Assembly: GCA_047967505.1 (NCBI GenBank)
Contig: CM106538.1
Strand: one strand, 5' to 3'
Origin: Dipteris shenzhenensis
Taxonomy: Eukaryota
Length of the DNA stretch: 64,000 nucleotides
Part shown: one piece after another, positions 34,401 to 62,900 of the stretch
How positions within the stretch are numbered: the stretch's first letter is position 1
Layout of the letters: each line of letters opens with the position of its first letter
Translations under genes and position numbers: made by a program
Notes under the pieces: generated by a model
Seen by the model: only the letters and a program-made list of their open reading frames with translations
What the model was told of the DNA's origin: nothing
The model's database searches: none

Positions 34401-37368
34401 ACCCAAACTCCTTTTCAACATGTTGCTTGAAATGCTTGAAGGCAAGCAAGACCTCATCCTTATCTTTTAAAGCTCCAAAGCATTATACTTAAACTTTGGT
34501 AGGCTAACAACAATGCCTTTATGCTGCATATTTTTCAGCTTCTAAATATTAATATGACCAATGCATTTGTGCCAAATTTCCAAATCAGAGACAACACTCG
34601 TACCATGGGTAAACATGGCAGCCTTTAGTTCCGGCATGCTTGCATCTAAAGTTCCCTTTTGCAATCAACTTGCAGCCATTACCAAACTCCTCAATGAAGC
34701 ATCCATCCTTATTAAACCGGACTTGCAAGTTCTGCTCAGCCATTTGTCCAACAAACAATAAGTTCTTGGTGATCGAAGGCACATGCAACACTTCACACAG
34801 CTTCTTGGTCTAACCATCATGCATCACCAGAGGCACAACACCCTTGTGTGTATCATCTCCTGTGCAAACATAACCATGCACACCAGGAGTCATCTCATCA
34901 AACCACTCTCTATGTGGTGTGATGTGATTAGATGCTCGTGAATCAATATACCACATATCATCCAAGCCACCATCAGTAGGCTTATGATACTGCACATGTG
35001 TCATAGCAAATAGCTGATCTGAGGATGTCTCATGCACATGACTAGAAGAGGCAAAATGGCCATGCTGATTTGCCTTTCCTCTTTGATTTGCTTACTTCTT
35101 GAAACAATCTCTGGCAATATGGCCAACCTTGCCACAGTAATGACATGTCTTATCACTATTAGGATTATGCTATTTGTTGCGGTTGTTGCCAAGTACCTCT
35201 CCCCCTACCTCTAAAGGCTCCACCTCCTCTCTGAGGTGACTGACTAGGGGTTTTAGGGATGTGCTTGCCATCACCTCTACCACATAATGAACCTTTGTGT
35301 CATCTACCATGGCCTCTCTAATCAGAGTAGAACACTGCATCACTATTCCTTGAGCTACCGCCATTGGTATTCAGCCCAAGCTTCATTTCCTCATGGCTCA
35401 AAAGAGCAACTAGCTCATTGAAATTCGGCATATTCTACCTCACAGAAATAGAAGTGTCAAATGACTTATATTCGGGACTAAGTCCATTCAGAATGACTAC
35501 AACCATGTCATCATCATCCATAGAAGTATCAATAGAAGCTAATTGATCAGCTATGGTTTTGATTTTAGTCACGTACTCCTGTATTGTTCTACCCCGCCTT
35601 AACATATTGTTGAACTTTTGCTTTAGCTGAATTTCCCTAGCACTTGTAGTTGTGCCATAATATCTTGTCAAGATATCCCATGCATTCTTGGGAGACTTGC
35701 AGTTCAGAATTTGCATAACCATGGCATCTGAAATAGATATTGAAAACCAATGAAGTACCCTCCATGCTCTTTCCAACCAAGCTTTATGATTCTTAACTTG
35801 TTTTGCAGTAGCATTTCTTTCTAGCAAATTAGGCTCTTTCTCATCATCTGTAACCAAATCCCAATATCCTTTTCCAGTCAGGAAATTTTCCATCTGAAAC
35901 TTCCAAATGGCATAATTATTTTGATCCAACTTCTCTCCAACGATCTATGTAACATTGTCACTACCACTAGCATTAGCGATAGTTTCCAACAGCAGATTTT
36001 TGCAACTTTTTGCTATTTTGCACAGTCAATAACTTTTGCACGTTACCTCAGATGCAAAACTATAAACTAAAAAATTGTAGCCAATCCACAGGTCTACAAC
36101 TTTCCAGTTTAGTGTAGGTCCAAATCCTATAAGGTTTCACTGTTATTTGCTGCTAAAGACAGCAGTCTGGAAACTTCCAGTTACTAGTTCAATGGATCAA
36201 CCGGACTCAAAATGCCACTTTGCTACTATCATTGGCAAGGCATAGCATCTCTCAAGCTACTTGACATTAACATCCAACCACTGGGCATCCAAATACCATC
36301 ACATATATTCATGAACATTGCAATATCATGCCTGCAACTGCATTTGACAATTTGACACTGAGTTGTAAACTGAGACTTTTTCTAATTTTCCCAAGCTCGT
36401 AACTTTTAATAATAAATCCAAATGAACTTGCTTCTAAAAGCAAAGTCGGAGCTTGTATACTTGCCTCCAACTTGTCAGTTCAGACTAGTATCCAAATCCA
36501 CACAGTTTGAGAAATAAACACTCCGAAAAATGATAATTTGATCACTTTTGAACAAAAAAACAGCAGTAGCACTTTTTGTGTTTGAACACGGGAGTCCTGG
36601 TAGCTCACAGAGAGACTAAGACTCCACAAAAATGATGTATGAGGATGTAGCAAACCTTTGGGGTGTTGATAGGAGATGTAGGAGAGTTTCTTCAAGCCAC
36701 AAACAACCTCCAGCAGAGAGCTAGACGATGAGGTTTGGAGAGACATTTCACAAACAACCTCTAGAGAGCTAGGCGATGAGGTTTGGAGAGACGTTTTTGC
36801 TTCTTATTGCTGTATATACCTCTTGCTTGGCTCAAATCAAGTAGTAATTGTCCAAAAAAAGAGATCAGCTCCATTCTATCATACCCAAACAGTAAAAACG
36901 AGTTGTGTTTTGTCAAAATACATCTCCCAATAGCAACCTATGGGTAATAGCGATCTCCCCTTAGCAAGAAGACATCAATTGGACAGCTCCCAAGCCAAAC
37001 AGATTGGCTTGAAGCTGGAAATTGCTACTTCGGTCTAAAAAACGAGATCTCTTCTCATCATTTCGAAGCTTCAGAGTAGGAGAAGCACTCCCGCAAGCTT
37101 CCACAAGCACTGGGCAACCAGAAGGCAAGGAACGGCAGCTCTGATACCATATTAAGAAAAACAAGAAGAGAGATATAGGAAGCAACCAGGAGGGAGCAAT
37201 AGTCTCCTCCACAATTAGCTCATATTCACCCCACACAATACAATTGAACACTACTAAGGACACACACATACATAGTAGATAAGAACTAACTACGGTTGAG
37301 TCAGTGTGACTCACCTTATTCACCTACTCACACAATAGGAACAATAACAGAGAGCTTGATTCCCAACA
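31462..37368 (-). mobile_element. Full-length degenerate Ty1/copia element
   Basis: 219-bp LTRs 31462-31680 and 37150-37368 (about 10 differences by eye); PBS 37138-37149; PPT CTCCCCCTC 31681-31689; imperfect TSD CACCC/CACAC. ORF fragments of gag, protease (WYIDSRASNH), integrase, RT (KARLVAKGY, YVDDL) and RNase H. Confidence 0.95.
33992..34289 (-). mobile_element. Solo LTR of the 38687-43981 copia family, inserted in an integrase
   Basis: 298 bp; reverse complement nearly identical to LTR 38687-38984. TSD GTCTA (33987-33991 / 34290-34294); it splits TCPYR|PQQNGVAE. Confidence 0.95.
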
Positions 37369-38686: not shown

Positions 38687-41600
38687 TGTTGAGATATCAA
38701 GCTCTACCCCCGATATATCTCCTGGATGACTATCATTTATGTCACCGCCTATGTTAGTTGTACTCGTGGTGTAGTTAGACTACCACGTATGTTTTTTGGT
38801 TTGGGTTCACATATGAACCACGTATTCTAGGGTTTGACATATAGGGTATTTCCCTCTTCTATTGTATTATTGTTGTGTGCAAAAGTGAAGAAGGCTTCAC
38901 CCTCCAACCTTGTGTCCTCTCTCTTTTGTGTGTTGTGAAGAAAGCTGAACTTGAGTCTCCTATCTCTCTCCCTTATTCTTTACATGGTATCAGAGCCTTG
39001 TTCGTGGTAAGGAGCTCAAGAAAGCAAGCCAAGTTTGTGGTGTCCTGGTAAGAGGACCAATGTTGCTTTCCTATTTCGAGTTTGGGAGCAAATCTCTGCA
39101 GGTAGCACAGCCAAAAGTACAGGAGTGCACTGTTTCAGATTGAGAGGCCCTTCGCGGTGTGGCGAGAGCGCAGTATATGCTGCGGGAGTTGCAGATTCAT
39201 GCCTATTGCCTGTTGATGCAAAATCGTCACTAGGAAGTGACTATGTGGTGAAATACCACTTTCGTCAGTGTTGCAGATCTGCCCTTGTGAGGTTTTTTGC
39301 AGAAGTTTTGCTATTTGCCCTTGTGAGGCATTTGCTGTGTTTACAGGTTGCTGTTGCAATTCGTGATTTGTAAAATGTCTGAGAATCTGTCTACCATTGT
39401 CAGTGAGAAGCTTGACAAGAACAACTTCCAAGCATGGAAGTTCAGGATGACAAACTTCCTTATGGGAAAGGGAGTTTGGGAGTACATCAGTGGTGAAACT
39501 GCAGAACCAGGGTGCTGCTCCCACTCCTGCTGAATTGAAGGCCTTTAAAGAATGGCATGAAAAAGCCAGAAAATGCCTGTATTGGCTGTCTGTTAGCATT
39601 TCAGATTCTATGATTGTGCATATACAGGATGTAGAGACGCCTAAGGAGGCATGGGATACATTGGTGAAGCTGTATAGCACAAATACCAAAGCACGAAAGA
39701 TGCAGCTAAAGCAGGAGTTGCACAATGTGCAAAGGAAAAATCTGAATATAAATGAGTATTTCTTGAAGGTGAAAGGCCTTGCAGATTCTCTTGCCTCCAT
39801 TGGAGCACCTGTTGATGATGAGGACTTAGTGTTCGTGACCTTGAATGGTCTTGGGAAAGATTATGCACAGTTTCGGACATCCATTGGAGTCCGTGAAACA
39901 TTTCCTGATTTTCAGGAACTTATTGCTCTCTTGCTGAGTGAAGAGCAAAGGAATGGTGGTTCAACCACCTCAACTTCTCAAGAGACTGCTTTCTACTCGA
40001 ATACAGGTAGAGGCAGGGGTAGAGGAAGAGGCCGTTTTGGTGGCCGTGTAGGAAATCAGAACCAACAGCAACAACAGGAAAACCAGTCCTATGGAGGAGG
40101 ACGTGGTAGTTCTAGAGGCAGGGGGAGCCAAAGAGGCCGTGGTTCATGGCAAAGGAACCAGCAAGTAAATAGCAGCACAGAATGCTATTATTGTGGAAAG
40201 CCTGGACACAAGGAGAATACATGCTATAAAAAGCAGAATGACATCAAAAGTGGGAAGTTACAGCAAAGCAACTATGCATCATCAAGTGGGCATGGTGACG
40301 ACAGAAATGAGCACCTTTTTGTGATGCAGCATATGGTTAACTCTATGTCAGGAGATGCTGTAGCTTGCAATGATGTTTGGTATGTTGATTCAGGTGCCTC
40401 TAACCACATGACCAGTCATGGTGAGTGGTTTCATGATGTTAGAAATTTGGATAAGCCAGGTTATGTTGAAACAGGTGATGATACTGCGCACCCAATTACG
40501 CAGGTTGGTAAAGTGCCATTGGCTATGCAGGATGGCAAAACGAAGTACTTGGCAGATGTACTTCATGTTCCAAAAATCACTAAGAACCTGGTTTCAGTTG
40601 GCCAGATGGTTGAGCAAGGTCTGCAGGTTAGATTTAATCCTGATGGATGCTTTGTTGAGGACTTGAAAAATAAGTGCCGCTTGGTTGCGAAAGGCAACAA
40701 AAATGGCAGAATGTTCACCTTGGATGTTGATATGCCTGACGTAAAAGCTGCTATGTTTGCGCATGGGAGAGGTGTCATTGCAGATATTGAGATATGGCAC
40801 AAGCGCATTGGGCACGTGAATATACAAAGGCTGAAATCAATGCAAACGAAAAACATTGTTGCAGGTTTGCCTAAATTCAGAGTTGAGGGAATGCAAAAGG
40901 TATGTGAAGCATGCCAAATGGGTAAGCAAGCCAGACATGCATTTCCCAAAAATGCTAAGGTGAGCAGAAGACCTTTGGAAGTGATCCATTCAGATGTTTG
41001 GACAACCAAAACTGCTTCTATTGGTGGATGCCATTATTATGTGACGTTTATTGATGACTACACTAGGAAGGTGTGGATTTATTTTATGAAGCACAAAAGT
41101 GAAGTGTTCAGCCATTTCAAGGCTTTTAAGGCCATGGTTGAAAAAGAGAAAGGTGTGCATATTAAAGTGCTAAGATCTGATGGAGGGGGAGAGTACTTTT
41201 CAGAAGAATTTTGTGAATATCTGAAAGAACAGGGAATTCAAAGGAAGTACTCATGCAGGTCAACCCTTCAGCAGAATGGGGTTGCAGAAAGGAAGAACAT
41301 GCATATTGCAGAAGTAGGACGGGCGATCCTAAATGAGAAAAACATGCCTGATTATTTTTGGGCTGAAGCAGTAGCAACTGCAGTTTATATTATGAACAGA
41401 ACCCCCACTGCAGCTGTCCATGGCATGACGCCTGAAGAAATGTATACAGGCCAAAAACCAGATATTTCTCACTTAAAGGTATTTGGTTGCATAGCTTATG
41501 TTCATGTCCCTCTGATGAGAAGAGAACAAAGCTGGATCCAAAGGCAGAAAAATGCATCTTTATTGGATATGCTCTGCACCAGAAAGGGTATCGCTGTTAT

Positions 41601-43981
41601 AACCCTTCCACCCACAAAATGCAAGTGAGCAGAGATGTTGTTTTTGATGAAATGAGCAGCTGGTATGCACCAACTGTTATGGTAGGAGATGCAGATGCAG
41701 GAAATGGGAATGCTGCAATAAATGCAGAGCAGCAATCTCAAGCCTTGAGTGGACCCAGAGAGTCCTCTACTAGTGGATCTAATGCATGGACAGGGAGATT
41801 GAGATCTAGTGAATCGTCACATGGCAGCCCTGATAGTGTTGTGTAGGTATCACATAAGGGAAAAGAAAAAGTAGACAATGCTCCAGTGTTTGATGTGTCT
41901 GCTGGTAGCTCTCATGTTGATGGAGAGTCAAGCGGCTCTGAAATGAGCCTTGATGAGGAACTTGGGATTCCTTCTGTTATTACACCTGGTGCAAGGAAAA
42001 GCAGGCATGATTTAAAGACTCCTGCAACTGATCCAGTTGTACGGAGGTCCACTCGTATTAAGTATCCAGTTGATAGGCTGAGATATGATGGGTATACAGC
42101 ACATCACTATGCTTATATGGTCAAGGTTCTAGAGGAGCCAGAGCCCACATGTTTTGAGGATGCAGCAGGGCATAAAAATTGGGAAGCAGCTATGGATGAA
42201 GAGATGGCTGCCTTGGATGCAAACCACACTTGGGATTTGATGCCTTTGCCTCATGATAAGAAGGCTATTGGCTGCAAGTGGGTTTACAAAGTAAAGCACA
42301 ATGCTGATGGGTCTGTTAGCAGGTACAAGGCAAGATTGGTTGCCAAAGGTTTTGCGCAGACATATGGAATTGACTATGAGGAAACTTTCAGCCCAGTTGC
42401 AAGGATGGCAACCATAAGAGCAGTAATTGCTATGGCTGCTCCAAAGGGATGGTCTTTGCATCAGATGGATGTGAAAAATGCCTTCTTGCATGGTGATTTG
42501 CAGGAAGAGGTTTATATGATGCAGCCAGAAGGTTATGAGGATAATTCACACCCCGATTTTGTATGCAGGTTGCGCAAAGCCTTGTATGGCTTAAAACAGG
42601 CGCCGAGGGCATGGTCAGACAAGATAGGGCAATATCTTGTCACTATTGGATTTCAGATTTCCAATTCAGATTTTTCACTTTATATGAAAAGGACAAACAG
42701 AGGGATTGTGCTTGTAGTCATCTATGTTGATGACTTGATTATTACAGGTGATAGTGATGCAGACATTAATGAAGTGAAGTTGCTGTTGAAGCAGAAATTT
42801 GAGATGAAGGATTTGGGAGAGCTGCGTTACTTCTTGGGCATTGAGGTTATTAGATCCCCGAGTGGGATATGGCTGTTGCAAAGGCAATACAGTTTGGACA
42901 TGCTGTCCAAATATGGGATGACAGGCTGTAAGCCTATCTCTATTTCATTGGAGCAGAATGTGAAGCTCAATGCAGAGACAGGTGAGCTTCTTGAAGATAT
43001 TACTATGTACAGGCGCATAGTAGGTAGCTTGATTTACATGACTATAACCAGACCAGATTTGAGCTATGCTATGGGGCTAGTGAGTCAATTTATGCAGGCA
43101 CCGAGGAAGCCACATTTGGATGCGGCTAGGCGCATACTGCGGTATGTGAAGTCCACATTGCATTATGGACTGTTTTATGAAGCTGGGTGTGCATTAAAGG
43201 TACATGGTTACACAGATGCTGACTGGGCTAGTAGTGTCTCAGACAGGAGATCTACTAGTGGTTTTATGTTTACCCTTGGGAGTGGTGCCATCAGTTGGAG
43301 CAGCAAGAAGCAGCCAACAGTTGCCTTGTCGAGCACAGAGGCTGAGTACAGGGGTGCAGCAATGGCTGCATGTGAGGTAGCTTGGTTACGGAAGCTACTT
43401 GCAGATATGGGACAGACAATTCATGCAGCAGTTGTCATTCATTGTGACAACATTAGCAGCATCATGCTTGCTAATAACCCAGTTTATCATGCTAGAACGA
43501 AGCACATTGAGGTGCATTATCACTTTTGAGAGAGAAGGTTCTAGCTGGTGAGATTGATCTTGTCTATGTCAGCACTGAGGAGCAGGTGGCTGATATTTTT
43601 ACGAAGGCATTGGGTACCGAGAAGCTTCGCAGATTTAGGAGCTTGCTTGGTGTACGTGAGATGGATTTGAGCTTGAGGGGGAGTGTTGAGATATCAAGCT
43701 CTACCGCCGATATATCTCCTGGATGACTATCATTTATGTCACCGCCTATGTTAGTTGTACTCGTGGTGTAGTTAGACTACCATGTATGTTTTTTGGTTTG
43801 GGTTCACATATGAACCACGTATTCTAGGGTTTGACATATAGGGTATTTCCCTCTTCTATTGTATTATTGTTGTGTGCAAAAAAGAAGAAGGCTTCACCCT
43901 CCAACCTTGTGTCCTCTCTCTTTTGTGTGTTGTGAAGAAAGCTGAACTTGAGTCTCCTATCTCTCTCCCTTATTCTTTACA
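38687..43981 (+). mobile_element. Young full-length Ty1/copia element (gag-PR-IN-RT-RH; few disablements)
   Basis: 298-bp LTRs 38687-38984 and 43684-43981 with 4 differences by eye; TSD CACAC; PBS TGGTATCAGAGC 38985-38996; PPT before 43684. The polyprotein starts at ATG 39375 and is split into ORFs 39490-41628, 41487-41846, 41886-43529 and 43526-43726. Confidence 0.97.
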
Positions 43982-48745: not shown

Positions 48746-51700
48746 TATGGCTAATAGTTCCTTCTCATACGTGCTATACTTTAATTCAGCACTTTAAAGT
48801 TTTTGACTTTCAAAGGCTATGGGATGTTCCTCTTGTATTAGTATAGCTCCAATGGATGTACCACTAGCATCTCTACATATAACAAAGAAAGGCTTATCAA
48901 AATCTGGCAAAACTAACACAAGGCTAGTCATTAAAGCAACATTCAAATTCTCAAAGGCACTCAAATGTCTATCACGCCAGTGATACATTGATTGCTTCTT
49001 AAGTAGATCAATAAGTGGTGATGCAATCTTAGAGAAATTTTTAGATGAATCTCCTATAATAGCTACATAAACCAAGAAAAGATCTTAGTTCATGTACATT
49101 TGTAGGGACAGGCCATTCCTTTATAGCTTTCGCCTTGGTTGGATCAACCTGAATTCCATGTTCATTGATGACATGGCCTAAATATTATATTTCCTTCTTA
49201 AAGAACTCACTTTTTTAATATTCAGGAAGAGTTGGTTCTCTCGAAGCAATCCCATCACTTGCTTTAGATGTTGCTTGTGTTCTTCTTCATTTTGGCTAAA
49301 AATTAAAATATCATCAAAGAACACAACTACAAACTTGCCTATGTATGGTCGAAGAACTCTTCTCATTAGCCTAGAAAAGGTAGTAGGAGCATTAGTCAAC
49401 CCAAAGGACATAACTACAAATTCAAAATGTCTTGTTTGTATCCTAAAGGCAGTCTTATGCACTTCTTCTTCCCTCATCCTAACTTGATGATATCCCGACT
49501 TTAAATCCAATTTGCTAAATACCCTAGCACCTTTCAAGGAGTCTAACAAGTCATCAACTCTAAGTATAGGAAACCTATTCTTAATTGTCAACTTGTTAAG
49601 GGCTCTATAGTCAATACACATCCTAAAGGTTCCATCGTTCTTCTTTACTAAAAGGACTGGAGCCCCAAAAGGCAAACTACTTGGCCTGATTAGACCTTTC
49701 TCTAACAAGTTCGCAACTTTCTTTTCCACCTCCTCTAGCTCTACCTTATTCATTCGATAGGGAGCTCTACATGGAGGAGAGGATCCTGGAATCAACTCAA
49801 TCGTATGATCTTTAGGTCTAGAGATAGGCAACTCATGCGGATCGTCACTAGCAAATCGATCATCGAATTACTTAAGGAACTCTAAATGTTGACGTTCCCG
49901 ATCACTATGTTCAGCCTTCACTTCCCTAACTTATATCACACTACAACTCATCTCCTTACGCAACTCTCTTTTAGCTCTAGTATGAGATATGAGCAGAATA
50001 TGGGAAATATCTCGCTCACCTTTTAAGGTGATCCTCGTACCTTGGTGTTCAAAGGTACAAGTATGTTTCCTTACATCCATAGATGGTTGGAAATCATATC
50101 TGCAAGACTTGCCTAGGATCATATTGACTTCCTGCAGAGGAGCAACAAGAAAGTCTCTACGATCTTTGTACTTTTGGATCTTGAAGGGCAAGTTCTTGAC
50201 TTTAGAAGTACATTGCTCTTCATTACCTCTAAACGCACCACTAATACTCATATCCCTCAAAGGCCATTTCCTAGCTTTGACTATATTAGCCAACCTATCT
50301 GAGATAATATCATAGTTACTACCATCATCCATGAGGACAATGATATGTTGAACCCTAACATATCCATGTAACTTAAATAAGTCGTGTCGACCAAAGGTGT
50401 AATGCAAACTAGCATTATTTCTCTTTTTATTATTTTCAATATTTTTACAAGAAGGTTCATCCTCTTGCTTAGGGTGAGAAGCCCTAGTTACATTGGCCTT
50501 ACCCATCTTCTTCTTTAACTTTGGACAATCATAGAATCTATGATCTGTCGCCTTTTTGCATCCCAAACATTTTATTTACTTAAACAATTTATCCCTTTCT
50601 TGAGGAGACATGAATGGAGGTTTCACAAGTCCTCCTAGAGTAGGTTTGCCTGTTGGTTTGCTATTAACTGTTCATACTCCCACTCGCCTAGGAAAGTGTC
50701 ATCCATTTCGGTTAGAGTTGGCTGATTGAACAAAGGGTCTACTTTGTGAAGTTGACACCTTATATGTTACTTCTCTCCTTCTAGGATTGACTTTCCTTTC
50801 CACTGCCTCAACCAATCTAATGGCATCCTTTAATTTAGTTGGGCTTAGGAGTTCCAACTCATGTCGTTGGGTCTAAGACTCAAGAGATACTTATATAATT
50901 TCTCCTCTTCCTTCTTCGTTTGTGAACTCTAGAGATAAACGCCAAAATTTTGGAGTGTATTCGCTCACTGTCTCCCTATCAAATTGTCGTAGTTTCTCCC
51001 ATTTAAACATTTGGTCCTCCTTATATTTAAGTAGGAGAAACTCGTCTTTAATTCTTCCAAGAATTTAGACCACTCCTTGATTGGACTACTTTCCGATTGG
51101 CATACGGACCACCAAAGTAACGCATCCTTCTCCAAATGTAGAGTAGCTAGTGCTAACTTCTCATCTTCCTTACGATCAAATTGTACAAAGTACAATTGGA
51201 AATGTCTAATCCAATCGAGAGTTTCTCTGGATGCCTAGCATACTTTGGAAACTCAAGCCGCTCCTTAGGATCAAACCTTCTTTTCTTAATCTTTTCTAAA
51301 GGGTCTGCCTGATCCTCAAATGATTCCCTTTTTAAGGGCATTTACCTTTGAATTGTGTCACTTATGACTGCCGACAATCCTTGAAGAAATTCTTGGATTG
51401 CGTTGTCCGGGTAGTGTGGCAGTGATGGTGTCCTTGGTGGAGGTTTGATATGTAGCTAAGGGTTATCGAATGATGGATCAAATACATTTTCAGATAGGGG
51501 TGTAAGGTGTTGTTCCCATGAGGTTTAATGTGAGTTTAGGAACGTTGTCAGGTGTGAATTCTTGACTATCTACCATGTTTAGGAAATGCAAATGGAACTA
51601 ATCAAGTTTTCAATTAAGCTTCGTGATGAGCTAAGAGTGTGTGAAATATATTTAAGTGTGATACAAAAAGGAATTTGAATGCGAGCGGAAAAAAAATAGT

Positions 51701-53128
51701 GGTACTTCCCCTCGCCCGTTCAAAGAAGTGCCCACTCCACGATCTTGCCCGTGACTCTACGGTGCTTTCACGACCCTCGGAATGTACAAGGGCACCTTCT
51801 CTTTTCTCTCTCTCTTTTAAAAAAATAAAAAATATATATATATATAAATGGCACGGTAAGGGGGGGGGCAAAGAGAAAAAGGAAATGAGAAGACAAATAA
51901 GAAGGGGGGAGGAATTATTGCAACACAAGGGAGGGGGGGTTTCGAAATGCAAGGGGGGGGGCGAGTTTTTTTTCGAAATGCAATGTGAGGGGGGGTTGAA
52001 ATGCAAAGGGGGGGGCAATTGAAAAATGTAATGATGAGAGGGGGGGGGGGGGCTTTAATGTTGACAACGGCAAGGGAGTGGAGGAGGTTGCTGGCGGGCA
52101 GCAGAAACACAAGGTGCAGGGCTAGCAGAGGCGTAGGGTTAGCGGGACTAACATGTGGCGGCGGCTGACAAGACACGAGGCAGAGGGGCAGATAATCTAC
52201 GAGCTGTTGTCAGAGAGGAGATAGGTGCACGGCCAACTGGCTGGGCAGAGTCGACTGTAGCAGAGGCTGGCGCAATTTGCGACGCCGTGCCACGGCCTGC
52301 ATGTCGAGGATGAAGGGGAGCACAAGGCCTTATACAAGACTCAAGAGTCAAATGACTACACGACGGGGGATAGTTTATGAGGCGGGACCACGCGTGGTGA
52401 CTGCTGTAGCTGATGCCCTAAAGACCCATGGTTCACGATGCAGGGTCGGTCCCCTTTTTTTCTTACAAAAAAGAAATTGCCTATCGACTTTACAAAAGAG
52501 ATTGCCTATCGCAAGAAGAGACTGACTTTCAGAGAAGGAAAACGAAGCCCTTTGGTGATTGATGGGTGAGTCTTGCTTCTCTTCGATGACTTCACGCCAA
52601 TGTCATCGACTGTTGCAACTTCCACTTGGCAGGCTCTCACACTCAAAGGATCTTGGCTTTGATACCACTTGTCACGTTCTTCAATGCAAAGATGCACATG
52701 TGTGTAGATGATGCATAAATTGAGAAGCATTGGCCCTCCAAATTGGGTGGAAGGAGTGCCCACATGAGTGTATTTTTGCTAGACTCTTCTCTATATGCTC
52801 CACACAAACCACAATCCATATGCATGCAAATGCCCATACTCACACACCATGAATGACACGAGAGGGTGCAACCCTCATGCCTCTTGGAATCACATCCCTT
52901 AGGCATACCCCATTATTCAACCCTTAGCCTATGACTCTTTATGCCTACCATTAATTAATGCAATACCCATGCACAATGCTACCCTTTCCTAACCATCCTA
53001 GGACCTTATGCATACGTGCATATTTTATTATATTTAATCGGCCAGTTAACAATGTTACGACCATAGGGTAATCACCAGATTCCCCAGAATGATCCATAGG
53101 ATCTAATACAAATAATCATGTCATGACA
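48746..53128 (-). mobile_element. Chromovirus-like Ty3/gypsy element, 5' half (LTR, PBS, gag, protease, RT, start of RNase H)
   Basis: LTR ~52670-53128 (TGTCA...TGACA); PBS GCTTTGATACCA 52656-52667; gag DALLWW; protease VLMDDGSNYDII. RT has CIDYRALNKLTIKNRFP...VVVFFDDILIFS (49178-49831), and RNase H DASGTSIGAIL...YSTYEKELLAI is cut by the Athila-like LTR. Confidence 0.92.
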
Positions 53129-54039
53129 TGAATAATGTAAAGAAAACAGAACTGAAAGATGGCGCGAAAGAATTGTGCATGAAGCTGACAGAGAAGGTGA
53201 AACTTTAATGACATTTCACTAGACAAAAAGAGAGACCACACATTCCACGGGACCACTTTAGAAATGAAAGAAGGAATCACCTCCCACACATTCCACCATG
53301 TCCATCTCATCACAAGCGCTGCCCATGACAGTCAAACCACTTTCTTTCGAACTGTAGATGCTCGAAATACACACACACAATTCCACACCACTATGGTTGA
53401 AACACACAGAGACAAATTCACTGTAGGCATCGTACTTTTATAGAGAAATCAAGACGAATAAAGGACACGAATAGCATATGCTTAAACACTTCATTCTTCC
53501 AGTCACTTCTGCAATCGACTTCACTCGCTCGTCTCTACGTAATGAAGGAAATGCTAGAACTTTTAACACGGTTCACAACAGACCACACAAAGGCAGACAA
53601 CACACGATTGTTGGAAGGCCCTCTGTCTTTACCCTTCGAGACCAACATGCAACAATAGAAAGTTGCTTGTTCGAATCTATCGGGGCCAAGAAATGCCACT
53701 CGAATAGCAACCGCAAAAAAGCAAGAAGCCGACCCAACCTACCCAAGAACAAGTCCCAGCCGAAAGAATTGGACTCCACAGAAGGTACCAAAGCCATCCA
53801 GATGGAATCTCTCCTCCTACCCTGCGGCAGCAAAGAGCATGCAAGGGCAGTACAAACCTGGTGATGCATTTGTGGTGCTGCAGTGATGGCTACGGTTGTT
53901 GCTGCTGCTACAAGACGTACAAAGCTATGTGAGTGTAGATCTGGCGATGCACAATGGGAAGAAGCAAAGGCAATGAAAATGAGGTAGGGAGGCGAGGAGG
54001 CGAGGAGCAGATGGTGGGAAGGAGGAGAGAAAATAGGGG

Positions 54040-54301
54040 CCAACAAACAAGAAAAAGTCCTAAGGACCTAAACCCTAACCACCGAATTAACCATCTACTA
54101 ACCTAACGGTCCCACTAACTCGTGAAAATCGACCACCAACACACAAAGCCCCACCCAAGCTCCAAAAACTCAGCGTGAGCTCTTGTTAGCACTGCCTTCC
54201 TGGCAGCGCTCTAGTTACATTTTTGTTACAAGGTGAATGATCAAAATCATTCATGAGGCCTGCCCTGGAAGCTGAGAGAGAGAAGAAGAAGAAGAAGAAA
54301 A

Positions 54302-54342
<41 letters not shown>

Positions 54343-54851
54343 AAGATCGGGACACAAATAGGAAAAAGATGGGAACACAAATAGCAAGCAAGAAGAAGAA
54401 GAAGAAGAGAGAAAGAGAAAGGGGGACAAAAATAGGGACAAAAATAGCAAGAACGGAGGATAAAAATAGCAACGGTGGATAGCCAATCACTCGTTTGCAC
54501 GCGTCTAAAAATTCACCAAACTACCACTCCAAGGCAACCACCCGGTAAGCCACAATTAGAAGCTTTATCATCTCAAAACAAAGAAAACGGTTACTATAAC
54601 CTTTCCCCTGGGCAGGCCAAAAAAGTGTCCCACTCACTTCGTTGCCACGTGGTCCCCTTCTATTTTGGTTCTTTCTCTCTCACACACACTCACCCACACA
54701 CACTTTCTTTTTTTGGCCTGCCCTTATAGGATAGCCTTAGCAATGGTTCTACTTTGGCAAAGCTAAAATAGGAGAGTTTTTAAATTTCATAAATTCTAGA
54801 TTTTTCTCATTGGCCTTTGTTAGGGGCTATTATGCACAACTAATGATTTTG

Positions 54852-54888
<37 letters not shown>

Positions 54889-55082
54889 TTCCCTCACTCC
54901 ACCACTCGTCCCTAGCCCACCCACCCTTCACCACCCCATTCTCTTTCTTAGCTTCCCTCACTCCACCACTAGTCTCACTCTTTCTCTCTCTTTTAGCTTC
55001 CCTCTAGCCCCCCCTACGCCTCCCCATTTCTTTTGGGCAGGACTATTGAATGACATGTGTCATTCATTTTTCACTTGTTAAG

Positions 55083-55113
<31 letters not shown>

Positions 55114-55115
55114 CC
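54040..55115. promoter_or_regulatory. Promoter-like island (GA/CT microsatellites, telo-box, CCAAT, G-box)
   Basis: AAACCCTAA ~54070, (GA)n 54274-54335, AGCCAATC 54481, GCCACGTGG ~54644, (CT)n 54854-54885 and 55087-55113; located upstream of the PPR gene. Confidence 0.45.
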
Positions 55116-55586
55116 GTTTGCAAATCATTCGAACTTTCCTATACACGAGCTTCCATCAAAGGTGTTGCAAATTAACCATTCATTCATATTGACAATTGTT
55201 TTCCTTTGATAGAACCAATTGAAGAAAGTGCTCTCGAGTACTTGTACTCACTTGTTTATGACGGAATTTGCAATTCACATGATATTAAACCTCGGTTTTC
55301 GGTGAGCACTCCGAGTGGAAGACCATGTCCACCGTCCGGACTCCGATGAGAGGCTCTGATTTCAAGGAAGATCCCATGAGCACCTTCGCAAGTCAACATC
55401 ACTTTGAACGTCTTCGTCAGTTCTGGAAAAAGCTCACACGTGGACAGAAAATGCACAGGACGCTCATGTAGCCTCGCGCCGAGCCTCGACATCTTGGAAA
55501 AGTGCCCAGGGTCAGAATTTCTATCTGGCTCGCTGCTCCGGGGCTCGCCATTTTTAAAGGTCATGTCCCTAGGAGCTTCCGAGGAG

Positions 55587-55628
55587 CGTCTAAGAGGCGG
55601 CATGCAGATCTTTGTGAAGACTTTGACC
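55587..55628 (+). other. Captured 42-nt polyubiquitin junction fragment (RLRGG|MQIFVKTLT)
   Basis: CGTCTAAGAGGCGGCATGCAGATCTTTGTGAAGACTTTGACC translates to the exact head-to-tail ubiquitin junction; the flanks are not ubiquitin. Confidence 0.85.
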
Positions 55629-56292
55629 AAGAATTTCGTCGACGTGAATCGTGATTGCAGAATTGGGCGAGCGAGGACAATGATTTCAACTGGGCACAGG
55701 AGGGGCACAAGCAATGGAATGCTGTTAACTGCGGCAAAATTGCGAGCATAGGGAAGAGCGCGTTTACGAAGTGGCAACCGCGAAATTTCAGGGTGCCAAA
55801 TATCGCACCAAAGCATATTTGTCAAAATGATGCAGAGCTTGCATTCAGGCGTAACATTGGAAGAGCTCTCTCCATTGGGGAAGTGGAGCGATAATCTACT
55901 AGGACAAGGGTTCTTCGATCCTCAAAATTGTGGGGGAGCGCTCTACTCGAAGCACTTCAACAAGTTCGAATTGAGGTACCTTAAACTTCAGTTTCGATTG
56001 GTCGTCCTTCCCAAGCAAAATGCTTGGCCAGCTGCCAAGTATATTGGCTTCTTAGGATTTTAGAGTTTTATAAAACGCCCTGGTGTTGGCGAAGTAAAGA
56101 CACAGCGCTCACGGCAAGAGTATTTTAGGGATTCGTCCAAGTCGAGCAAAGTGATTGCATGGGTAAAAAGCTGTAGAAATACTGCTAGTCTGGCGAGTCT
56201 GTTAAAACAGACAAACCCAACGGATCAAGATAAAATTATCGAGGAGTCTCTATCGATAAGGTGCTGTGCAATCCAAGAAAACGGAGTCTGGA

Positions 56293-58362
56293 ATGCACGG
56301 GGCCATAGCATCCGTTGGTCAGGCCCGGTCAAACTGTGGAGACTGTGGCTTGGTGGAGACTCTGAGCAATTGCAAAGCCAGCGATGGGTGTGCAGTACAG
56401 GTGAATGCACCTAAAGCACAAGAATTGCATGACAAAATTGTCTGGGAAATGCCAAGCTTAGAGGAGGCAATCACCTCTTTAGAACGGACGCCCCAGCTAC
56501 CTTCGATTGACAGCTTTATATGCATTTTGCAAAAGTGTAGAAAAGGAAAAAATCTAGCCTATGCTAAGCGTTTGCATGCCTACATGTGCAAAAGTAAACT
56601 GGAAGCTCATAGATCTCTAGGGAACTACCTTGTCCCCATGCTGGTGGAATGTGGAAGCATATGCGATGCCCAGCAGGTTTTCAACAGGTTGGTTGATGCA
56701 AATGAGCACTCTTGGACGTCTCTCATCATGGGCTATATTGAATGCGGGGAATCACAGCATGCTTTCAACCTCTACGAGAAAATGCAAGGGTATTGGGTAC
56801 GTCCCAGCAAGCATACGTTTGTAGCCCTACTGAAGGCTTGTGCTAGGCTGAAATTTGCAGAAAAAGGTCAAGAAATACACTTTGAGATTGCCAAAAAGGG
56901 GTTGGAAAGTGATCCTTTTGTTGGTGCCACCTTGATTGATATGTATGCCAAATGTCGCTTGCTTGCAGAAGCACAGGACGTGTTTGACAAGCTTCCAATT
57001 CGAGATGTAGTCTCCTGGAGTGCACTGATCACAGGATATGCCGACCACAGGCTTTGTGAGGAAGCACTGAACTGTTTCGAACAGATGCAAATAGAGGGGG
57101 TGTCTCCAGATGCTGTCACTTTTATTTGCATCTTGACAGCATGTTGCAGTGTAGGAAGCATAGACAAGGGTGGGAAGATACACGCAGAGATTGCCAGAAA
57201 GGGGTTGGAAAGTCATCCCTTGGTTGGCACCACCATGGTCAATCTGTATGCCAAATGTGGCTCGCTCGCAAAAGCAGAGGAAGTGTTCTCCAAGATTCCA
57301 GTTCGAGATGTAGTGTCCTGGAATGCACTAATTGCAGGGTATGCCCAAGAGGGTCTTAATGAGGAAGTGCTGAACTGTTTCGAACAGATGCAATTGGAGG
57401 GGTTGTCTCCGATTTCTGTCACATTTGTTTGCGCCTTGAAAGCTTGTGGCAGTATAGGAGCCACAGACAAGGGTGAAGAAATGCATGTCGAGATTGCCAG
57501 AAACGGGTTGGAAAGCAATCCTTTTGTCAGTCCTGCCTTGGTCAATATGTATGCCAAATGTGGTTCGCTTGCAAAAGCAAGGGAAGTTTTTGACAAGCTT
57601 CCAGTTCGAGATGTAGTCTCCTGGAACGCACTAATCACAGGGTATGCCCAACAGGGGCATGGTGAGGAAGCATTGAACTGTTTCGAACAGATGCATTTAG
57701 AGGGAGTGTCTCCGGATGCTGTCACGTTTGTTTGCAGCTTGAAAGCTTGTGGTAGTGTAGGAGCCATAGACAAGGGCCAAGAAATACACACTGAGATAGC
57801 CAGGAAGGGGTTGGAAAGTGATCCTTTCCTTGGTGACACCTTGGTGGATATGTATGCCAAATTTGGCTCGCTTGCAAAAGCACATGAAGTGTTTGACAAG
57901 CTTCCAGCTCGAGAGAAAGTCTCGTGGAGTGCACTACTTGCAGGGTATGCCCAGCTAGGGGAAAGTGATATCGTTTTCCATATGCTCGAGAGAATGCAAG
58001 GAGAAGGCATAATGCCAGACAGAGTCACATTCCTTAGTGTTCTGATTGTCTGCAGTCACTCAGGTCTAGTCGATAAGGGCCAGAAGTACTTTCAGGCCAT
58101 AAGCAAAGACTATGAGATTACTCCAACTATTGAGCACCACAATTGCATGGTTGATCTCCTTGGCCGGGCAGGTCAGTTAGATGAGGCAGTAGCAATTGTG
58201 GAGGAGATGCCTTTCCAACTTGTTCTTGCAGTCTGGCATACTGTGTTGGGTGCTTGTCAAAAGTGGGGTAATGTGGAGGTTGGACAACAGGCCTTTGACC
58301 GTGCACTGCGATTGGATGAAAAGGATGCTGCAACTTATGTCCTGATGTCTAACATCTATTAA
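56293..58362 (+). CDS. PLS-class pentatricopeptide repeat protein (organellar RNA-editing factor type), ending in the E domain
   Basis: Intronless ORF of ~690 aa (ORF track opens at GTG 56266; first ATG 56293; true start uncertain). It has repeated P-L-S motifs (LVDMYAKCGSL..A..VFDKLP.RDVVSWNALI.GY, PDAVTFVC.LKAC), P2-L2-S2 (EHHNCMVDLLGRAG) and E1 (VWHTVLGACQKWGN...YVLMSNIY). Confidence 0.92.
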   Translation: MHGAIASVGQARSNCGDCGLVETLSNCKASDGCAVQVNAPKAQELHDKIVWEMPSLEEAITSLERTPQLPSIDSFICILQKCRKGKNLAYAKRLHAYMCKSKLEAHRSLGNYLVPMLVECGSICDAQQVFNRLVDANEHSWTSLIMGYIECGESQHAFNLYEKMQGYWVRPSKHTFVALLKACARLKFAEKGQEIHFEIAKKGLESDPFVGATLIDMYAKCRLLAEAQDVFDKLPIRDVVSWSALITGYADHRLCEEALNCFEQMQIEGVSPDAVTFICILTACCSVGSIDKGGKIHAEIARKGLESHPLVGTTMVNLYAKCGSLAKAEEVFSKIPVRDVVSWNALIAGYAQEGLNEEVLNCFEQMQLEGLSPISVTFVCALKACGSIGATDKGEEMHVEIARNGLESNPFVSPALVNMYAKCGSLAKAREVFDKLPVRDVVSWNALITGYAQQGHGEEALNCFEQMHLEGVSPDAVTFVCSLKACGSVGAIDKGQEIHTEIARKGLESDPFLGDTLVDMYAKFGSLAKAHEVFDKLPAREKVSWSALLAGYAQLGESDIVFHMLERMQGEGIMPDRVTFLSVLIVCSHSGLVDKGQKYFQAISKDYEITPTIEHHNCMVDLLGRAGQLDEAVAIVEEMPFQLVLAVWHTVLGACQKWGNVEVGQQAFDRALRLDEKDAATYVLMSNIY

Positions 58363-58827
58363 GATGCTTACATGATGGAGGCCAAGAAGAATTTCCAAGC
58401 AATGAACGAAACGACAAGCATGGAAGAAACCAGGACAGAACTGAACTGGAATTCTGCGTAGCTTTGTACTGAGGGACATGGGACATTCCCAAAGCAAGGA
58501 TATAAATGCAAAACTAAAAGAGCATTCCTTCAAATGCGGAAAGAAATGTAGTCCGAGATGTGGATTGTGTTCCATGGGACATGTCCAATAATGTAAAGAA
58601 AGATGGGCGATGTAAAGAAAAGTTGGTTATGTGGGCACATCGAGAAGCTTGCCGTTCGTTGTTAATCTGAATACACCCAAGGGGACACCCGTACTCATTG
58701 TCCAAAGTAATCCAGGTTGTGATGATGCCATGCAGCCACTAATATCAATAGTAGAGCAGCTGTCAAGGATGCAAACCACGGTCATGTCTTCCGAAGGAGG
58801 GAAAGTCCTTGTGGCAACTATGGCTGA
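58363..58827 (+). pseudogene. Decayed E2/DYW cytidine-deaminase tail of the PPR gene
   Basis: Across frameshifts: AWKKPGQN* (58418-58444), SFVLRDMGHSQSKDINAKL, LCGHIEKLA (58627-58653), NTPKGTP..I...CDD, KDANHGHVF and CGNYG* (58810-58827). Confidence 0.85.
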
Positions 58828-59905
58828 TGCTTCTGCTTCTATATAAGCTAGTGTTCCTCTTATGTCAAATATTAATTCTAGAATGATGGAAGCCAACTTG
58901 GAAGAAAAGCTCATGCATGCATGCTGTTTTGAGATCACACATGTGTCTCTCTTCTAAAGGTGATATCATATTAGCACTAACCTTTTGTAATGGACTCCGT
59001 CTCCACATGGAAGCATACCAGTCCTTTTCTCTTCTACAGCTTTCTTCCTGCAGTTTTCTTTAAGTTTTGAAGGAAAACTGCAATTTCTATGCTTTCCATG
59101 CACCTGTCTCTTTGAAAATTGGAGAATTAGTGGCCTAGGGTGTGGAGAATACCCGGGTAGATTTCTGTTGCCAGAATGTTGCTGTTTATAGACCAGCTGC
59201 AAAAGTTTGGGTTTTTGGTCCAAATTTTAAAATTGAAATCACCTTCAAGAGCAGATTATTGATATAAGTACAGGTTGGATGGAATTGGGAGATGATTTAA
59301 TTGTTAGTAGTTAGCGTGGTTCGCCCTCATGGGAGATAGTTGCTGGTAGGGTTGATTTGATTGGCCCATGCAGGCCTCGAAGGTACTATTGGGCAAGGCC
59401 TCTCATGGAGGACACTTGGCAGTCGAGTCTACGAGGTATTGCATGGCGATTCTACTGGCGGTGACCTTTCGACGCTTGGCGATTTTGAAATGAGACGGAA
59501 AATAATGACATTGCCATAGCTTTGATTCATTACTGATTGGTATTGGTTATCACATTGTAATAACAATATAAAGCTTGAAAAAGACACATCGGAATACATA
59601 AGTACTTCCTCATTCGGAATTCCTGAACACGACACATGCATATTTTGCATGAGGAAGAAATAGATATAGTTACTTGGACACACTTCAAAGCAGTTACATG
59701 CAACTTCCCAAAGGTTTATTATATGCCTTCTACGAGTATCAAAAGAGAAATAGTTTATGACTATAGTTTATGTATGTTGATGGAGCATTTGCTTCCACTG
59801 ACAAACCTGGTGGAACATGGATTTTTGGCCAGCAAAAATGACTGAGACCTGAACCCACTCTCAGTTTGGTTGGTCTATGTCATCAGTATCTGCTAACACA
59901 TCTTC

Positions 59906-62900
59906 TGTTGGAAAGGTCACCTCCCCATCTGTAAGCCCCCATATGAGGAGAGCATGGGGGGGGTGGACCTGGCCCCCGAGGGATGGCCACATCAGCAGCA
60001 AGATGGCTGCCATGGGGGCAAAGATCAGAGAGAAAAAGGAAAGTACCTGGACGCATCAAAGTGGCTGCAACACATGGCGTCAAGACCATGGCAGATGGCG
60101 ATGCATACATGGCATAGATTTGGCATGGAAGAGACAGATCTAGAGCAGCACCAAATGGTGGGGTATCCCGGGGTATAGGCGCCTACATGGCGAGCTATCT
60201 GGCGAGCTGTGTGAGTAGGCACATGGCCTGCAACATACCCTAAAGATGGCGCAGGAATATGGCGGGAGAGATCAGCAAACAGGTTGGCCAACAGTAGCGC
60301 TGGTTGGGGCTGGTTGAGCCAGCCAACCAGGCCTTGGTTAGGCTGGTCAAGAGGGCTGGGTCCTTGCCTGGAACAAAGGCTGCAAAGGGCCTAGTAAAGA
60401 CACTTAATAGGGCCCTGGTTGGGCTGGTAGGGGCAGCCAACCAGGTCGGTTTTTAGCCAGCAGACTGAGTCGGCCAAAATAGGGCTGACCAGTCGGCTCT
60501 TTTGACCAGGCCTTGGGACTATAAAAGGAGAGGCCCTGGTCCTCATAATTCATCCACCCATTCAGCAAGAGCAGGAGCAGATAGGAGCAGCCAGAAGACA
60601 CTCCCTTGGGCCTCACACTAGGGGCGAAGGAGAGTGGAAGGTGTGCTGCAGACTGAGTTCCCTAGAGGCTGGACCTTGGCTGTCTTCTAGGGCAGCGAGG
60701 TGTCGTGATCAATATCTTCTGGAGCAGCCATTCACAAGCAGTTTGGAGCACTGGAGCAGCTATCTTGGGGCCTACATTCAGGAGGACCAAGAGGACCTGT
60801 GTGCTGCAGAAAAAGCTTGACAGGGGCTGCCTACCTAGGCTGACACTCAGGGCAGCAAGGTTGAGAAGAACACTCTTGACAGAGAGTCTACATACGCTCG
60901 AGGTGGAGCATGCGGGCTCAGAGATCTAGAAGTGCTTGACATCTAGTAGGAGAACCTTTTGGTATTGTATCATGTCCTACTTTGTGGACGGACGGAAATA
61001 TAAAGTGTTGCTTCTATATTTGTCTCTGAGCATTGTATATTTACTGGCTTGCCATCTATGTACATAAGTTTAAGAAGTTTGTGATTCCACACCCCACACC
61101 ACAGTGTGTGAGCTCCTGGGCAATTCTATCATTCTTCTGCTGTATGTACCCTCTGTTAGGTAATTTCTAACATGGTATTAGAGCCCAAGTAGGAGGCTCA
61201 CAGGTGTGGGAGCCTGAATTCAGGGACCTTGCTAAAGGATGACCCCGATTCAGAAGCTCTTGGGAATCGACTTCCACGACTGGAGGATGGTGCCCTTGCG
61301 AGAAGGAGGTTGACTTAGGTCAATCAGGTGCATTTAGAGTTCGCGGTCCAGGTTATCTGGAGATGTTCTTTTGTTTTGCGGACCTTGCTAAAGGAAGGAC
61401 GGGTTGAAACAGACCCTCAGAGCATGGTGCCTGGAAGACTCCAGGTTGTTCACTCATTATGAGGGGGACAACTAGTAGATCGTGGCGGCTGGATTGCTCG
61501 AGTTTGAAGGCGGGAGCGTGATTGAAGGTGGTGGTGCCAGGAAGTGCTACCACAGATGGACTTGTGTACTAGGATGGTGTGGGGAAGCGGAACCAGACCT
61601 GGTGGAGCAAGAGCCACTGGACGAAAAGCTAGGAAAAGATTTCGACAGCGAAAGCTTCTAGAGGACTACGACCAGGGACTTACTGGAGCATCGTCATCGA
61701 CGTGTTGGCATTGGGCCGAGATGTGTCAGTGAGAGGTGGTGTTGGAAAGTTCACCTCCCCATCTGTAAGCCCCCATATGAGGAAAGCATTGGGAGGGGGG
61801 GGTTGGACCTGGGTCCTGAGGGATGGCCACATGGGCAGCAAGATGGCTGCCATGGGGGCAGCATGGGGTTAGAGATCAGAGAGAAAAAGGAAAGTACCTA
61901 GACGCATCAAAGTGGCTGCAACACATGGCGTCAAGACCATGGTAGATGGCGATGCATACATGGCATAGATCTGGCCTAGAAGAGACAGATTTGGAGCAGC
62001 ACAAGATGGCAGGGTATCCTGGGGTACAAACGCCTACATGGCGAGCTATCTGGCGAGGTGTTTGGGTAGGCACATGGCCTGCAGCATACCCTAAAGATGG
62101 CGCAGGAATATGGCGGGACAGATCAGCAAACAGGTCGGCCAACAGTAGAGCTGGTTGGGGCTGGTTGAGCCAGCCAACCAGGCCTTGGTTAGGCTGGTCA
62201 AGAGGGCTGGGTCCCTGCGTGGAACAAAGGCTGGAAAGGGCCTAGTAAACCCTTATATAGGGCCCTGGTTGGGCTGGTAGGGGCAGCCAACCAGGTCGGT
62301 TTTCAGCCAGCAGACTGAGTCAGCCAAAATAGGGCTGACCAGTCGGCTATTTTGACCAGGCCTTGGGCCTGTAAAAGGAGAGGCCCTGGGCCTCATAATT
62401 CATCCAACCATTCAGCAAGAGCAGGAGAAGACAGGAGCAGCCAGAAGCCACTCCCTTGGGCCTCACACTAGGGGCGAAGGAGAGTGGAAGGTGTGCTGCA
62501 GACTGAGTTCCCTAGAGGCTGGACCTTGGCTGTCTTCTAGGGCAGCGAGGTGTTGTGATCAATATCTTCTGAAGCAGCCATTCAGCTATCTTGGGGCCTA
62601 CATTCAGGAGGACCAAGAGGACCTGTGTGCTGCAGACAAAGCTTGGCAGGGGCTGTTGGAAAGGTCACCTCCCCATCTGTAAGCCCCCATATGAGGAGAG
62701 CATGGGGGAGGGAGACCTAGGGCAGTACCCAACAGAAAAAGAGAGAAAGGGGCTGCCACATAGACAGCATCATGGCTGTCATGTGGGCAGCACATCTAGA
62801 ACTGTTATGTGCAGGACAGAGGGCCAGAAAAGTGCAGAAGCATGGCTGGGACAGATTGCGATGGATCTAGACAGGAGGCGCACTGTCTGCAGTAGGTTTT

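Follow-up and report, generated by a model that had tools for sequence, protein, structure and literature searches.

A 42-nt polyubiquitin-junction piece upstream of an intronless PPR gene, a possible relic of break repair

The PPR gene and its CpG-rich upstream region

The window analyzed here is a 64,000-nt (64-kb) stretch of transposon-rich, CpG-depleted plant nuclear DNA. Over the whole window, CpG observed/expected ranges from 0.11 to 0.63 (2-kb windows), compared with 0.93–1.03 (400-nt windows) across 55201–56000, where the piece described below is located. The stretch thus stands at about 1.0 against 0.1–0.5 elsewhere, and the CpG-retaining setting claimed for this piece in the initial annotation is borne out. 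Such a CpG level is presumably the signature of a stretch held unmethylated in the germline, and an observed/expected ratio of about 1.0 would be consistent with open chromatin. The features of the locus are collected in Table 1. Elsewhere, the window contains two or more elements of the copia type that carry frames for gag, integrase, and RT (ranges noted at 31973–35944, 39451–43529, and 49178–49867); the element at 39451–43529 has long open frames, and a separate RVT_1 reverse-transcriptase frame is also present in the window.

Table 1. Features of the PPR gene and its upstream region (window coordinates).
Feature	Position	Strand	Basis
Repeat-family member, ending where the CpG-rich stretch starts	55125..55255		Contig depth 145 (record 1); 5–22 contigs at 55176–55234
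CpG-island-like stretch, presumably unmethylated in the germline; putative PPR promoter region	55201..56000		CpG observed/expected
221-codon stop-free frame, probably a chance ORF in CpG-rich DNA	55256..55921	-	Nothing in Pfam and PDB
115-codon stop-free frame holding the piece, probably not coding	55404..55751	+	No homologue; flanks not ubiquitin-like
42-nt polyubiquitin-junction piece (5 terminal codons of one unit plus 9 initial codons of the following unit)	55587..55628	+	Translation, PDB phmmer, contigs, blastn
Short piece, probably a lineage-specific repeat fragment	56018..56075	+	Run X1 contig of depth about 383 with both ends loose
TATAAAA, candidate core promoter element	56069..56075	+	Sole TATA[AT]A in 55000–56400
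Intronless PLS-class PPR ORF, from the first ATG to a TAA (58360–58362) inside the E motif	56293..58362	+	Pfam, 709-aa paralogue
Same-frame tail with 8 more stops, read as the decayed E/DYW end of the PPR gene	58363..58827	+	Presumed resemblance

The PPR ORF is recognized by Pfam as PPR (6.3e-73) and PPR_2 (1.4e-72), and a 709-aa paralogue is 50% identical to it. The E_motif scores 24.9 bits in Pfam, under the cut-off of 27.3. All 689 codons before the TAA are intact, and at position 58361 most paralogue contigs of two public runs (X1 and X2) carry C for A, which would make this codon a sense codon. By its likeness to the consensus, the tail behind the TAA may be a decayed E/DYW domain; Pfam searches of four of its between-stop pieces returned nothing. 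Given its intact codons, the gene may persist as a PPR tract of reduced length. No A-run was seen at its 3′ end on inspection by eye. A search of 54000–57000 against Rfam (E of 1 or below) gave one sub-threshold snoRNA-like match at 56301–56361, which scored 20.6 bits where the gathering threshold is 70, and tRNA genes were not found in 53000–60000.

Logan contigs of four public runs (X1, X2, X3, and X5) were aligned to 54000–60000 at a likeness of at least 88%. Contig depth at the level of the PPR paralogues, in the hundreds to thousands, begins only near 56412; the upstream kilobase thus lies outside any unit common to the paralogues at this likeness. Over the unique parts of the upstream region, the depth in X1 and X2 is 2.5–4.5, which corresponds to low copy. 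The contigs covering these parts (55702–55959 and 56045–56454 in X1; 55602–55751 and 55775–55973 in X2) are of low depth and differ from the window by a few percent. No second copy of the upstream kilobase or of the 42-nt piece was found within the 64 kb.

A repeat-family member and a probable repeat fragment lie near the piece. On the 5′ side, the repeat-family member is adjoined by (CT)n microsatellites at about 54850–55115. Pyrimidine and GA tracts are common near plant promoters, and a (GA)n tract (54305–54334) and two (CT)n tracts (54854–54885 and 55087–55113) of opposite polarity lie just upstream of the CpG-rich stretch. On the 3′ side, the 58-nt match at 56018–56075 reaches its high depth in run X1 alone. 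Since X2, X3, and X5 lack such depth, this segment resembles a repeat confined to one lineage more than an abundant RNA that is conserved; no other copy of it occurs within the window. It contains the TATAAAA at 56069, and this repeat fragment may supply the core promoter of the PPR gene. The initial annotation had suggested that the rest of the leader might be a mosaic of captured fragments. This proposal gained no support: nothing else in 55260–56260 aligned at 88% or more in the runs of two distant species, the frames of this region lack homologues, and the sole other capture candidate is the segment at 56018–56075.

Both stop-free frames in the CpG-rich stretch were compared with known proteins. 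The 221-codon frame, which runs antisense to the piece, is the longest frame in the window that belongs to neither a transposon nor the PPR gene; it gave 0 matches in the PDB and no Pfam family. One candidate relative of this frame, the single match among 1.84 billion representatives, was rejected, as it was a 1683-aa repeat protein in which five weak repeats of 28–34% identity were summed. For the 115-codon frame, which is followed by a stop, no Pfam family was found at a meaningful E-value, and none of the 19 candidates among predicted proteins resembled it at E 10 or below; its 62-aa ATG form yielded no candidate among predicted proteins. Pfam matches of the open frames near the piece were noise only (E 0.14–0.26). 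Both frames are probably chance frames in stop-poor, CpG-rich DNA.

A polyubiquitin repeat junction of 42 nt

Inside the 115-codon frame, 14 consecutive codons, CGT CTA AGA GGC GGC followed by ATG CAG ATC TTT GTG AAG ACT TTG ACC, translate to RLRGGMQIFVKTLT (RLRGG|MQIFVKTLT), which is identical in 14/14 residues to the repeat junction of polyubiquitin. The initial annotation had named these codons, and both the translation and a phmmer search against all PDB chain sequences confirm them. In the latter, residues 62–79 alone of the 115-aa frame align, at every polyubiquitin junction, and identity is limited to the 14 residues of the piece. The frame is otherwise not ubiquitin, as had been stated. 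A complete ubiquitin domain (PF00240, about 76 residues, beta-grasp) was not detected in it by Pfam at E up to 10. From the six-frame residue frequencies of the window itself, this 14-mer is expected 1.8e-13 times per window by chance, and any ubiquitin 14-mer about 1.4e-11 times. A chance origin, which the initial annotation had called implausible, is therefore excluded. The piece comprises exactly 14 codons and is in frame with the surrounding open frame, and we take both its length in whole codons and the frame agreement as coincidence.

The extent of the match was examined at the DNA level. High-depth polyubiquitin contigs from all four runs align at 55586/7–55627/8 alone, and slightly shorter in two distant species. 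Outside the piece, the loose ends of these contigs continue as ubiquitin: on the 5′ side ...CAGAAGGAGTCCACCCTCCATCTGGTCCTC (QKESTLHLVL), and on the 3′ side GGTAAGACCATCACTCTGGAAGTTGAGAGT (GKTITLEVES). The exact 42-mer had 0 matches in metagenome contigs; a degenerate pattern retrieved 39 metagenome polyubiquitin loci, which served as stand-in donors. In blastn of 55100–56399 against these loci, the match was confined to 55586–55628. Across 78 junctions in 38 loci, 30–38 of the 42 nt were identical to the piece. The four best junctions were identical at 38/42, and all 4 differences lie in third codon positions. These third-position differences look like donor codon usage rather than decay after insertion, and, because all differences from the closest junctions are synonymous, the piece seems to have changed little since it was inserted.

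In contrast to the piece, its flanks are at random level. The 20-nt flanks matched the ubiquitin flanks of the 78 junctions at 3.7/20 on the left and 7.6/20 on the right, and their translations were no better matched to ubiquitin than shuffles (p 0.91 downstream, 0.72 upstream). The sharp borders, together with the unrelated flanks in contigs, loci, and shuffles, indicate that the part derived from ubiquitin measures 42 nt to within about one base and does not continue as a longer pseudogene. In tblastn, the match could be extended to 55757 (39% over 59 residues, E 0.002), but this extension was rejected as longer decayed ubiquitin, since its score is owed to the 14 identical residues. An off-frame stretch of 23 residues at about 55312–55380 weakly resembles ubiquitin residues 27–51 (score 36, shuffle p 0.003). 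It was likewise rejected as a remnant: 7 of 1328 window tiles, from about three separate loci, score at least 36, and the stretch is not collinear with the piece. No ubiquitin gene was found elsewhere in the 64-kb window by tblastn and word search, and no further ubiquitin words of at least 6 residues occur there. Collectively, phmmer, contigs, and blastn support the earlier view of a tiny, isolated capture from a polyubiquitin junction, which is neither a gene nor a product of chance.

Contig support and position relative to the promoter

Independent contigs cover the piece in part. One X2 contig (record 9, depth 2.46) spans 55602–55751 and so joins 27 letters of the piece to 123 letters of the 3′ flank. 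A bridge over a border was defined by 31 letters on each side; with 27 letters on the side of the piece, this contig is suggestive only. The 5′ border is uncovered by independent contigs among the 32 of 8422 pieces listed. With regard to read support for the 42-mer at this site, on which the initial annotation had made its claim depend, the 3′ part of the piece is thus seen beside its flank in X2, and the 5′ border is not seen among those 32 pieces.

The initial annotation had also placed the piece in the leader of the PPR gene, where its ATG might act as a uORF. The distance it gave, about 670 bp before the PPR ATG, is right: 665 nt separate the end of the piece at 55628 from the ATG at 56293. 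The placement in the leader, however, finds no support. There are 15 ATGs in 55260–56292, the ubiquitin ATG among them; the ATG at 55602 opens a frame of 49 codons and the ATG at 55563 a frame of 62 codons. Since the region holds these 15 ATGs, and the sole TATA[AT]A lies downstream of the piece at 56069, the piece is likelier to be in the promoter than in the mRNA leader. From the TATAAAA, transcription would be predicted to start near 56100, which would leave one 5-codon uORF before the PPR ATG. The piece would then probably lie about 480 nt upstream of the predicted transcription start.

Origin of the piece and comparison with known insertions

The explanation we favor, to which we give an even chance, is that the piece is filler DNA, a templated patch copied from a polyubiquitin gene or mRNA during the repair of a double-strand break, and now a neutral relic. 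We infer a break-repair origin, a promoter position, and neutrality for the piece. In this mechanism, a chromosome break would have occurred in the open, unmethylated region upstream of the PPR gene. About 42 nt of the polyubiquitin junction would then have been copied in, either through a free 3′ end or from a short fragment of cDNA or DNA; the template would have been polyubiquitin mRNA, which is very abundant, or any of the numerous junction copies in the genome. The break would have been sealed by end joining with the patch of about 42 nt retained, and the patch would have no function of its own. As it encodes only 5 + 9 residues of two units, no ubiquitin fold could arise from it. About 41 of 228 possible 42-nt windows of a polyubiquitin array span the unit junction (arithmetic on a 228-nt unit); the junction position of the scrap therefore needs no special reason.

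Break repair by filler, which had been offered as one option in the initial annotation, fits the short piece, its sharp borders, and the absence of both a target-site duplication and a poly(A). Comparison of the two 40-nt flanks reveals no common word of 5 nt or longer, and homopolymers of A or T that reach 6 nt are missing within 60 nt of the piece. Terminal repeats or element ends were not found around it; direct or inverted repeats bracketing it were also not found. As the evidence from four runs and 38 loci shows, together with the lack of a ubiquitin gene in the 64 kb, the piece is a short insert templated from a distant locus, and it has no target-site duplication, poly(A), or element termini, as in filler and in the human class 2 insertions considered below. 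Possible microhomology to the donors amounts to 1 nt at the left border (24/78 donors) and none at the right border (77/78). Points against filler include this scarcity of microhomology, the 0 exact matches of the 42-mer in metagenome contigs, the fit of the piece to 14 whole codons in frame, and a 5′ border uncovered among the contig pieces listed. In addition, copying in cis is commoner in plants, and no ubiquitin gene lies within the window.

Plant filler DNA, as described in PMC7156093, arises when a 3′ end primes on short homology, tens of bases are copied, and the ends are rejoined; copying is mostly in cis and sometimes in trans. The primary sources cited there and in PMC8395108 are Gorbunova & Levy 1997 and Wessler et al. 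1990. As in the filler made by synthesis-dependent end joining that these accounts describe, the insert at this locus is tens of bases long, copied from elsewhere, and sharply bordered; a target-site duplication, poly(A), and element ends are absent in both, and distant donors are documented for filler. In contrast, the known cases are read against the pre-break sequence, whereas this piece is read from the occupied site alone. Moreover, filler in these accounts is mostly copied in cis, while the piece must have been copied in trans, and its microhomology was assessed at 0–1 nt only.

A narrower form of the same explanation, possible though unlikely, is that the patch was copied from polyubiquitin mRNA and not from DNA, when a break in an open promoter was repaired with an RNA template or a cDNA patch. 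Because a polyubiquitin junction contains no intron, mRNA and DNA donors are indistinguishable here. Comparable events have been described in humans as class 2 templated insertions (TSIPs), which lack target-site duplications and poly(A), derive preferentially from transcribed donors, and become fewer when reverse transcriptase is inhibited (PMC5110952). They have been proposed to be reverse-transcribed RNA that patches a germline break (PMC5110952). Similar to these insertions as described there, the piece would be a patch from a distant transcribed locus without a target-site duplication, a poly(A) signal, or a poly(A) tract. The class 2 insertions of that account, however, are human, whereas the piece is in a plant, and the ubiquitin junction has no intron by which an RNA origin could be marked.

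A reverse-transcriptase template switch, the first option put forward in the initial annotation, is unlikely. According to this reading, the enzyme that was retroposing the PPR mRNA, or some other retro-insert, jumped onto polyubiquitin mRNA and off again, which left a chimeric cDNA. Polyubiquitin mRNA is abundant. The piece and the intronless PPR ORF also point in the same direction, the window is rich in genes for reverse transcriptase (copia and others), and chimeric retro-pseudogenes with double jumps are known (PMC2104539). However, two jumps within 42 nt would be needed, because the DNA on both sides of the piece is not ubiquitin. A poly(A) run and a target-site duplication, the hallmarks of such an event, are absent around the piece, which likewise lacks the target-site duplication of at least 5 nt and the 3′ poly(A) that define LINE-mediated (class 1) retro-inserts. 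Furthermore, the piece is 665 nt away from the PPR ATG, and paralogue similarity begins at about 56412, so that the upstream kilobase is outside the shared retroposed unit (at 88% or more); the region resembles a native CpG-island promoter. In the chimeric retro-pseudogenes formed by LINE template jumping, as described in PMC2104539, pieces of different transcripts are joined head to tail in one orientation, as they would be here, but poly(A), target-site duplications, and usually the whole 5′ part of the second template accompany them; all of these are absent at this locus.

Distinctly unlikely is the reading in which the piece is a remnant of a larger unit. That unit would have been a gene fragment transported by a DNA transposon (Pack-MULE, Helitron, or CACTA), or a ubiquitin pseudogene fragment from which deletions left 42 nt. 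Transposon-captured gene fragments are usually hundreds of bases long, unlike the piece. Plant transposons do often bear fragments of host genes (PMC13317346, PMC8903248), pieces of repeat families lie nearby at 55125–55255 and 56018–56075, and the off-frame ubiquitin-like stretch of 23 residues could be counted in favor. This last match, however, does not exceed the best unrelated tiles, and it is out of line with the piece. Terminal inverted repeats and target-site duplications were not found; Pack-type elements and Helitrons have termini and multiple carrier copies, and the locus shows no termini and has no copy in the window. The unique upstream parts are also of low copy in X1 and X2. The uniform decay of a larger ubiquitin fragment would not yield 14 perfect codons between flanks at random level. 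Compared with captures by Pack-type elements, Helitrons, and CACTA elements as described in PMC13317346, PMC8903248, and PMC1947982, the piece is similarly a host coding fragment out of context in non-coding DNA. It differs from them in its lack of termini, its low copy, and a length roughly ten times shorter than usual.

We consider it very improbable that the piece is a functional element, that is, an upstream ATG or uORF, or a stretch of small-RNA or antisense identity that couples the polyubiquitin and PPR genes. The two open frames from the ATGs at 55602 and 55563, the lack of any non-synonymous change in 14 codons, and the X2 contig from a related sample, in which 27 nt or more of the piece adjoin the same flank, would agree with such a role. 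Against it, the ubiquitin ATG is one of 15 in 55260–56292, with the sole TATA[AT]A downstream, and proteins like the uORF products were not found. Ubiquitin is a 76-residue fold, which cannot form from five residues of one unit joined to nine of another, and Pfam does not detect ubiquitin here. Finally, the piece has neither the hairpin nor the nearby inverted copy typical of young small-RNA genes: no stable hairpin was found, and the fold of 55500–55720 has a z of -0.10 relative to shuffles.

The least probable reading is an artefact, in which a bit of ubiquitin DNA or cDNA arrived through a chimeric read or an assembly misjoin. In its favor, the 5′ border is uncovered among the 32 of 8422 contig pieces listed, and no run containing half or more of the words of the stretch was found. 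However, assembly chimeras do not normally measure 42 nt and sit within unique sequence that carries on to left and right, and misassembly is unlikely because the X2 contig over 55602–55751 has 27 nt of the piece followed by the 3′ flank seen here.

Captured ubiquitin sequence has a viral parallel. Genomes of cytopathic pestiviruses carry ubiquitin-coding insertions in which at least one whole unit is kept, and host proteases cut after Gly-Gly. In those genomes, as would be the case here if the donor was an mRNA, sequence has been captured from polyubiquitin mRNA repeatedly. The pestivirus insertions, however, are RNA-virus recombinants with a whole unit, whereas the piece consists of 5 + 9 residues in nuclear DNA.

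As filler, the piece is most likely a further instance of an already known kind of repair scar, and inert. A single inert scar of 42 bases is of little importance by itself. It is nevertheless a clean and readily recognized trans-templated filler that would have been fixed in the plant germline, and it illustrates that a match to an iconic peptide in non-coding DNA need not imply a gene, a uORF, or a cleavage site. If the donor was indeed an mRNA, the piece would be a germline-fixed plant case that corresponds to the class 2 insertions of humans, and donors would be drawn preferentially, genome-wide, from abundant stress-induced transcripts. Scraps of up to 60 nt from highly expressed genes in unmethylated plant promoters would be informative in this respect, as those spanning exon–exon junctions would prove RNA-templated repair.

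A minor observation concerns the DNA between the piece and the TATAAAA. In a 320-nt contig of X2, the first 200 letters match 55775–55973 and the last 120 depart from the window, which hints at a structural difference, such as an indel or an inserted repeat, between the X2 sample and the window just after 55973.
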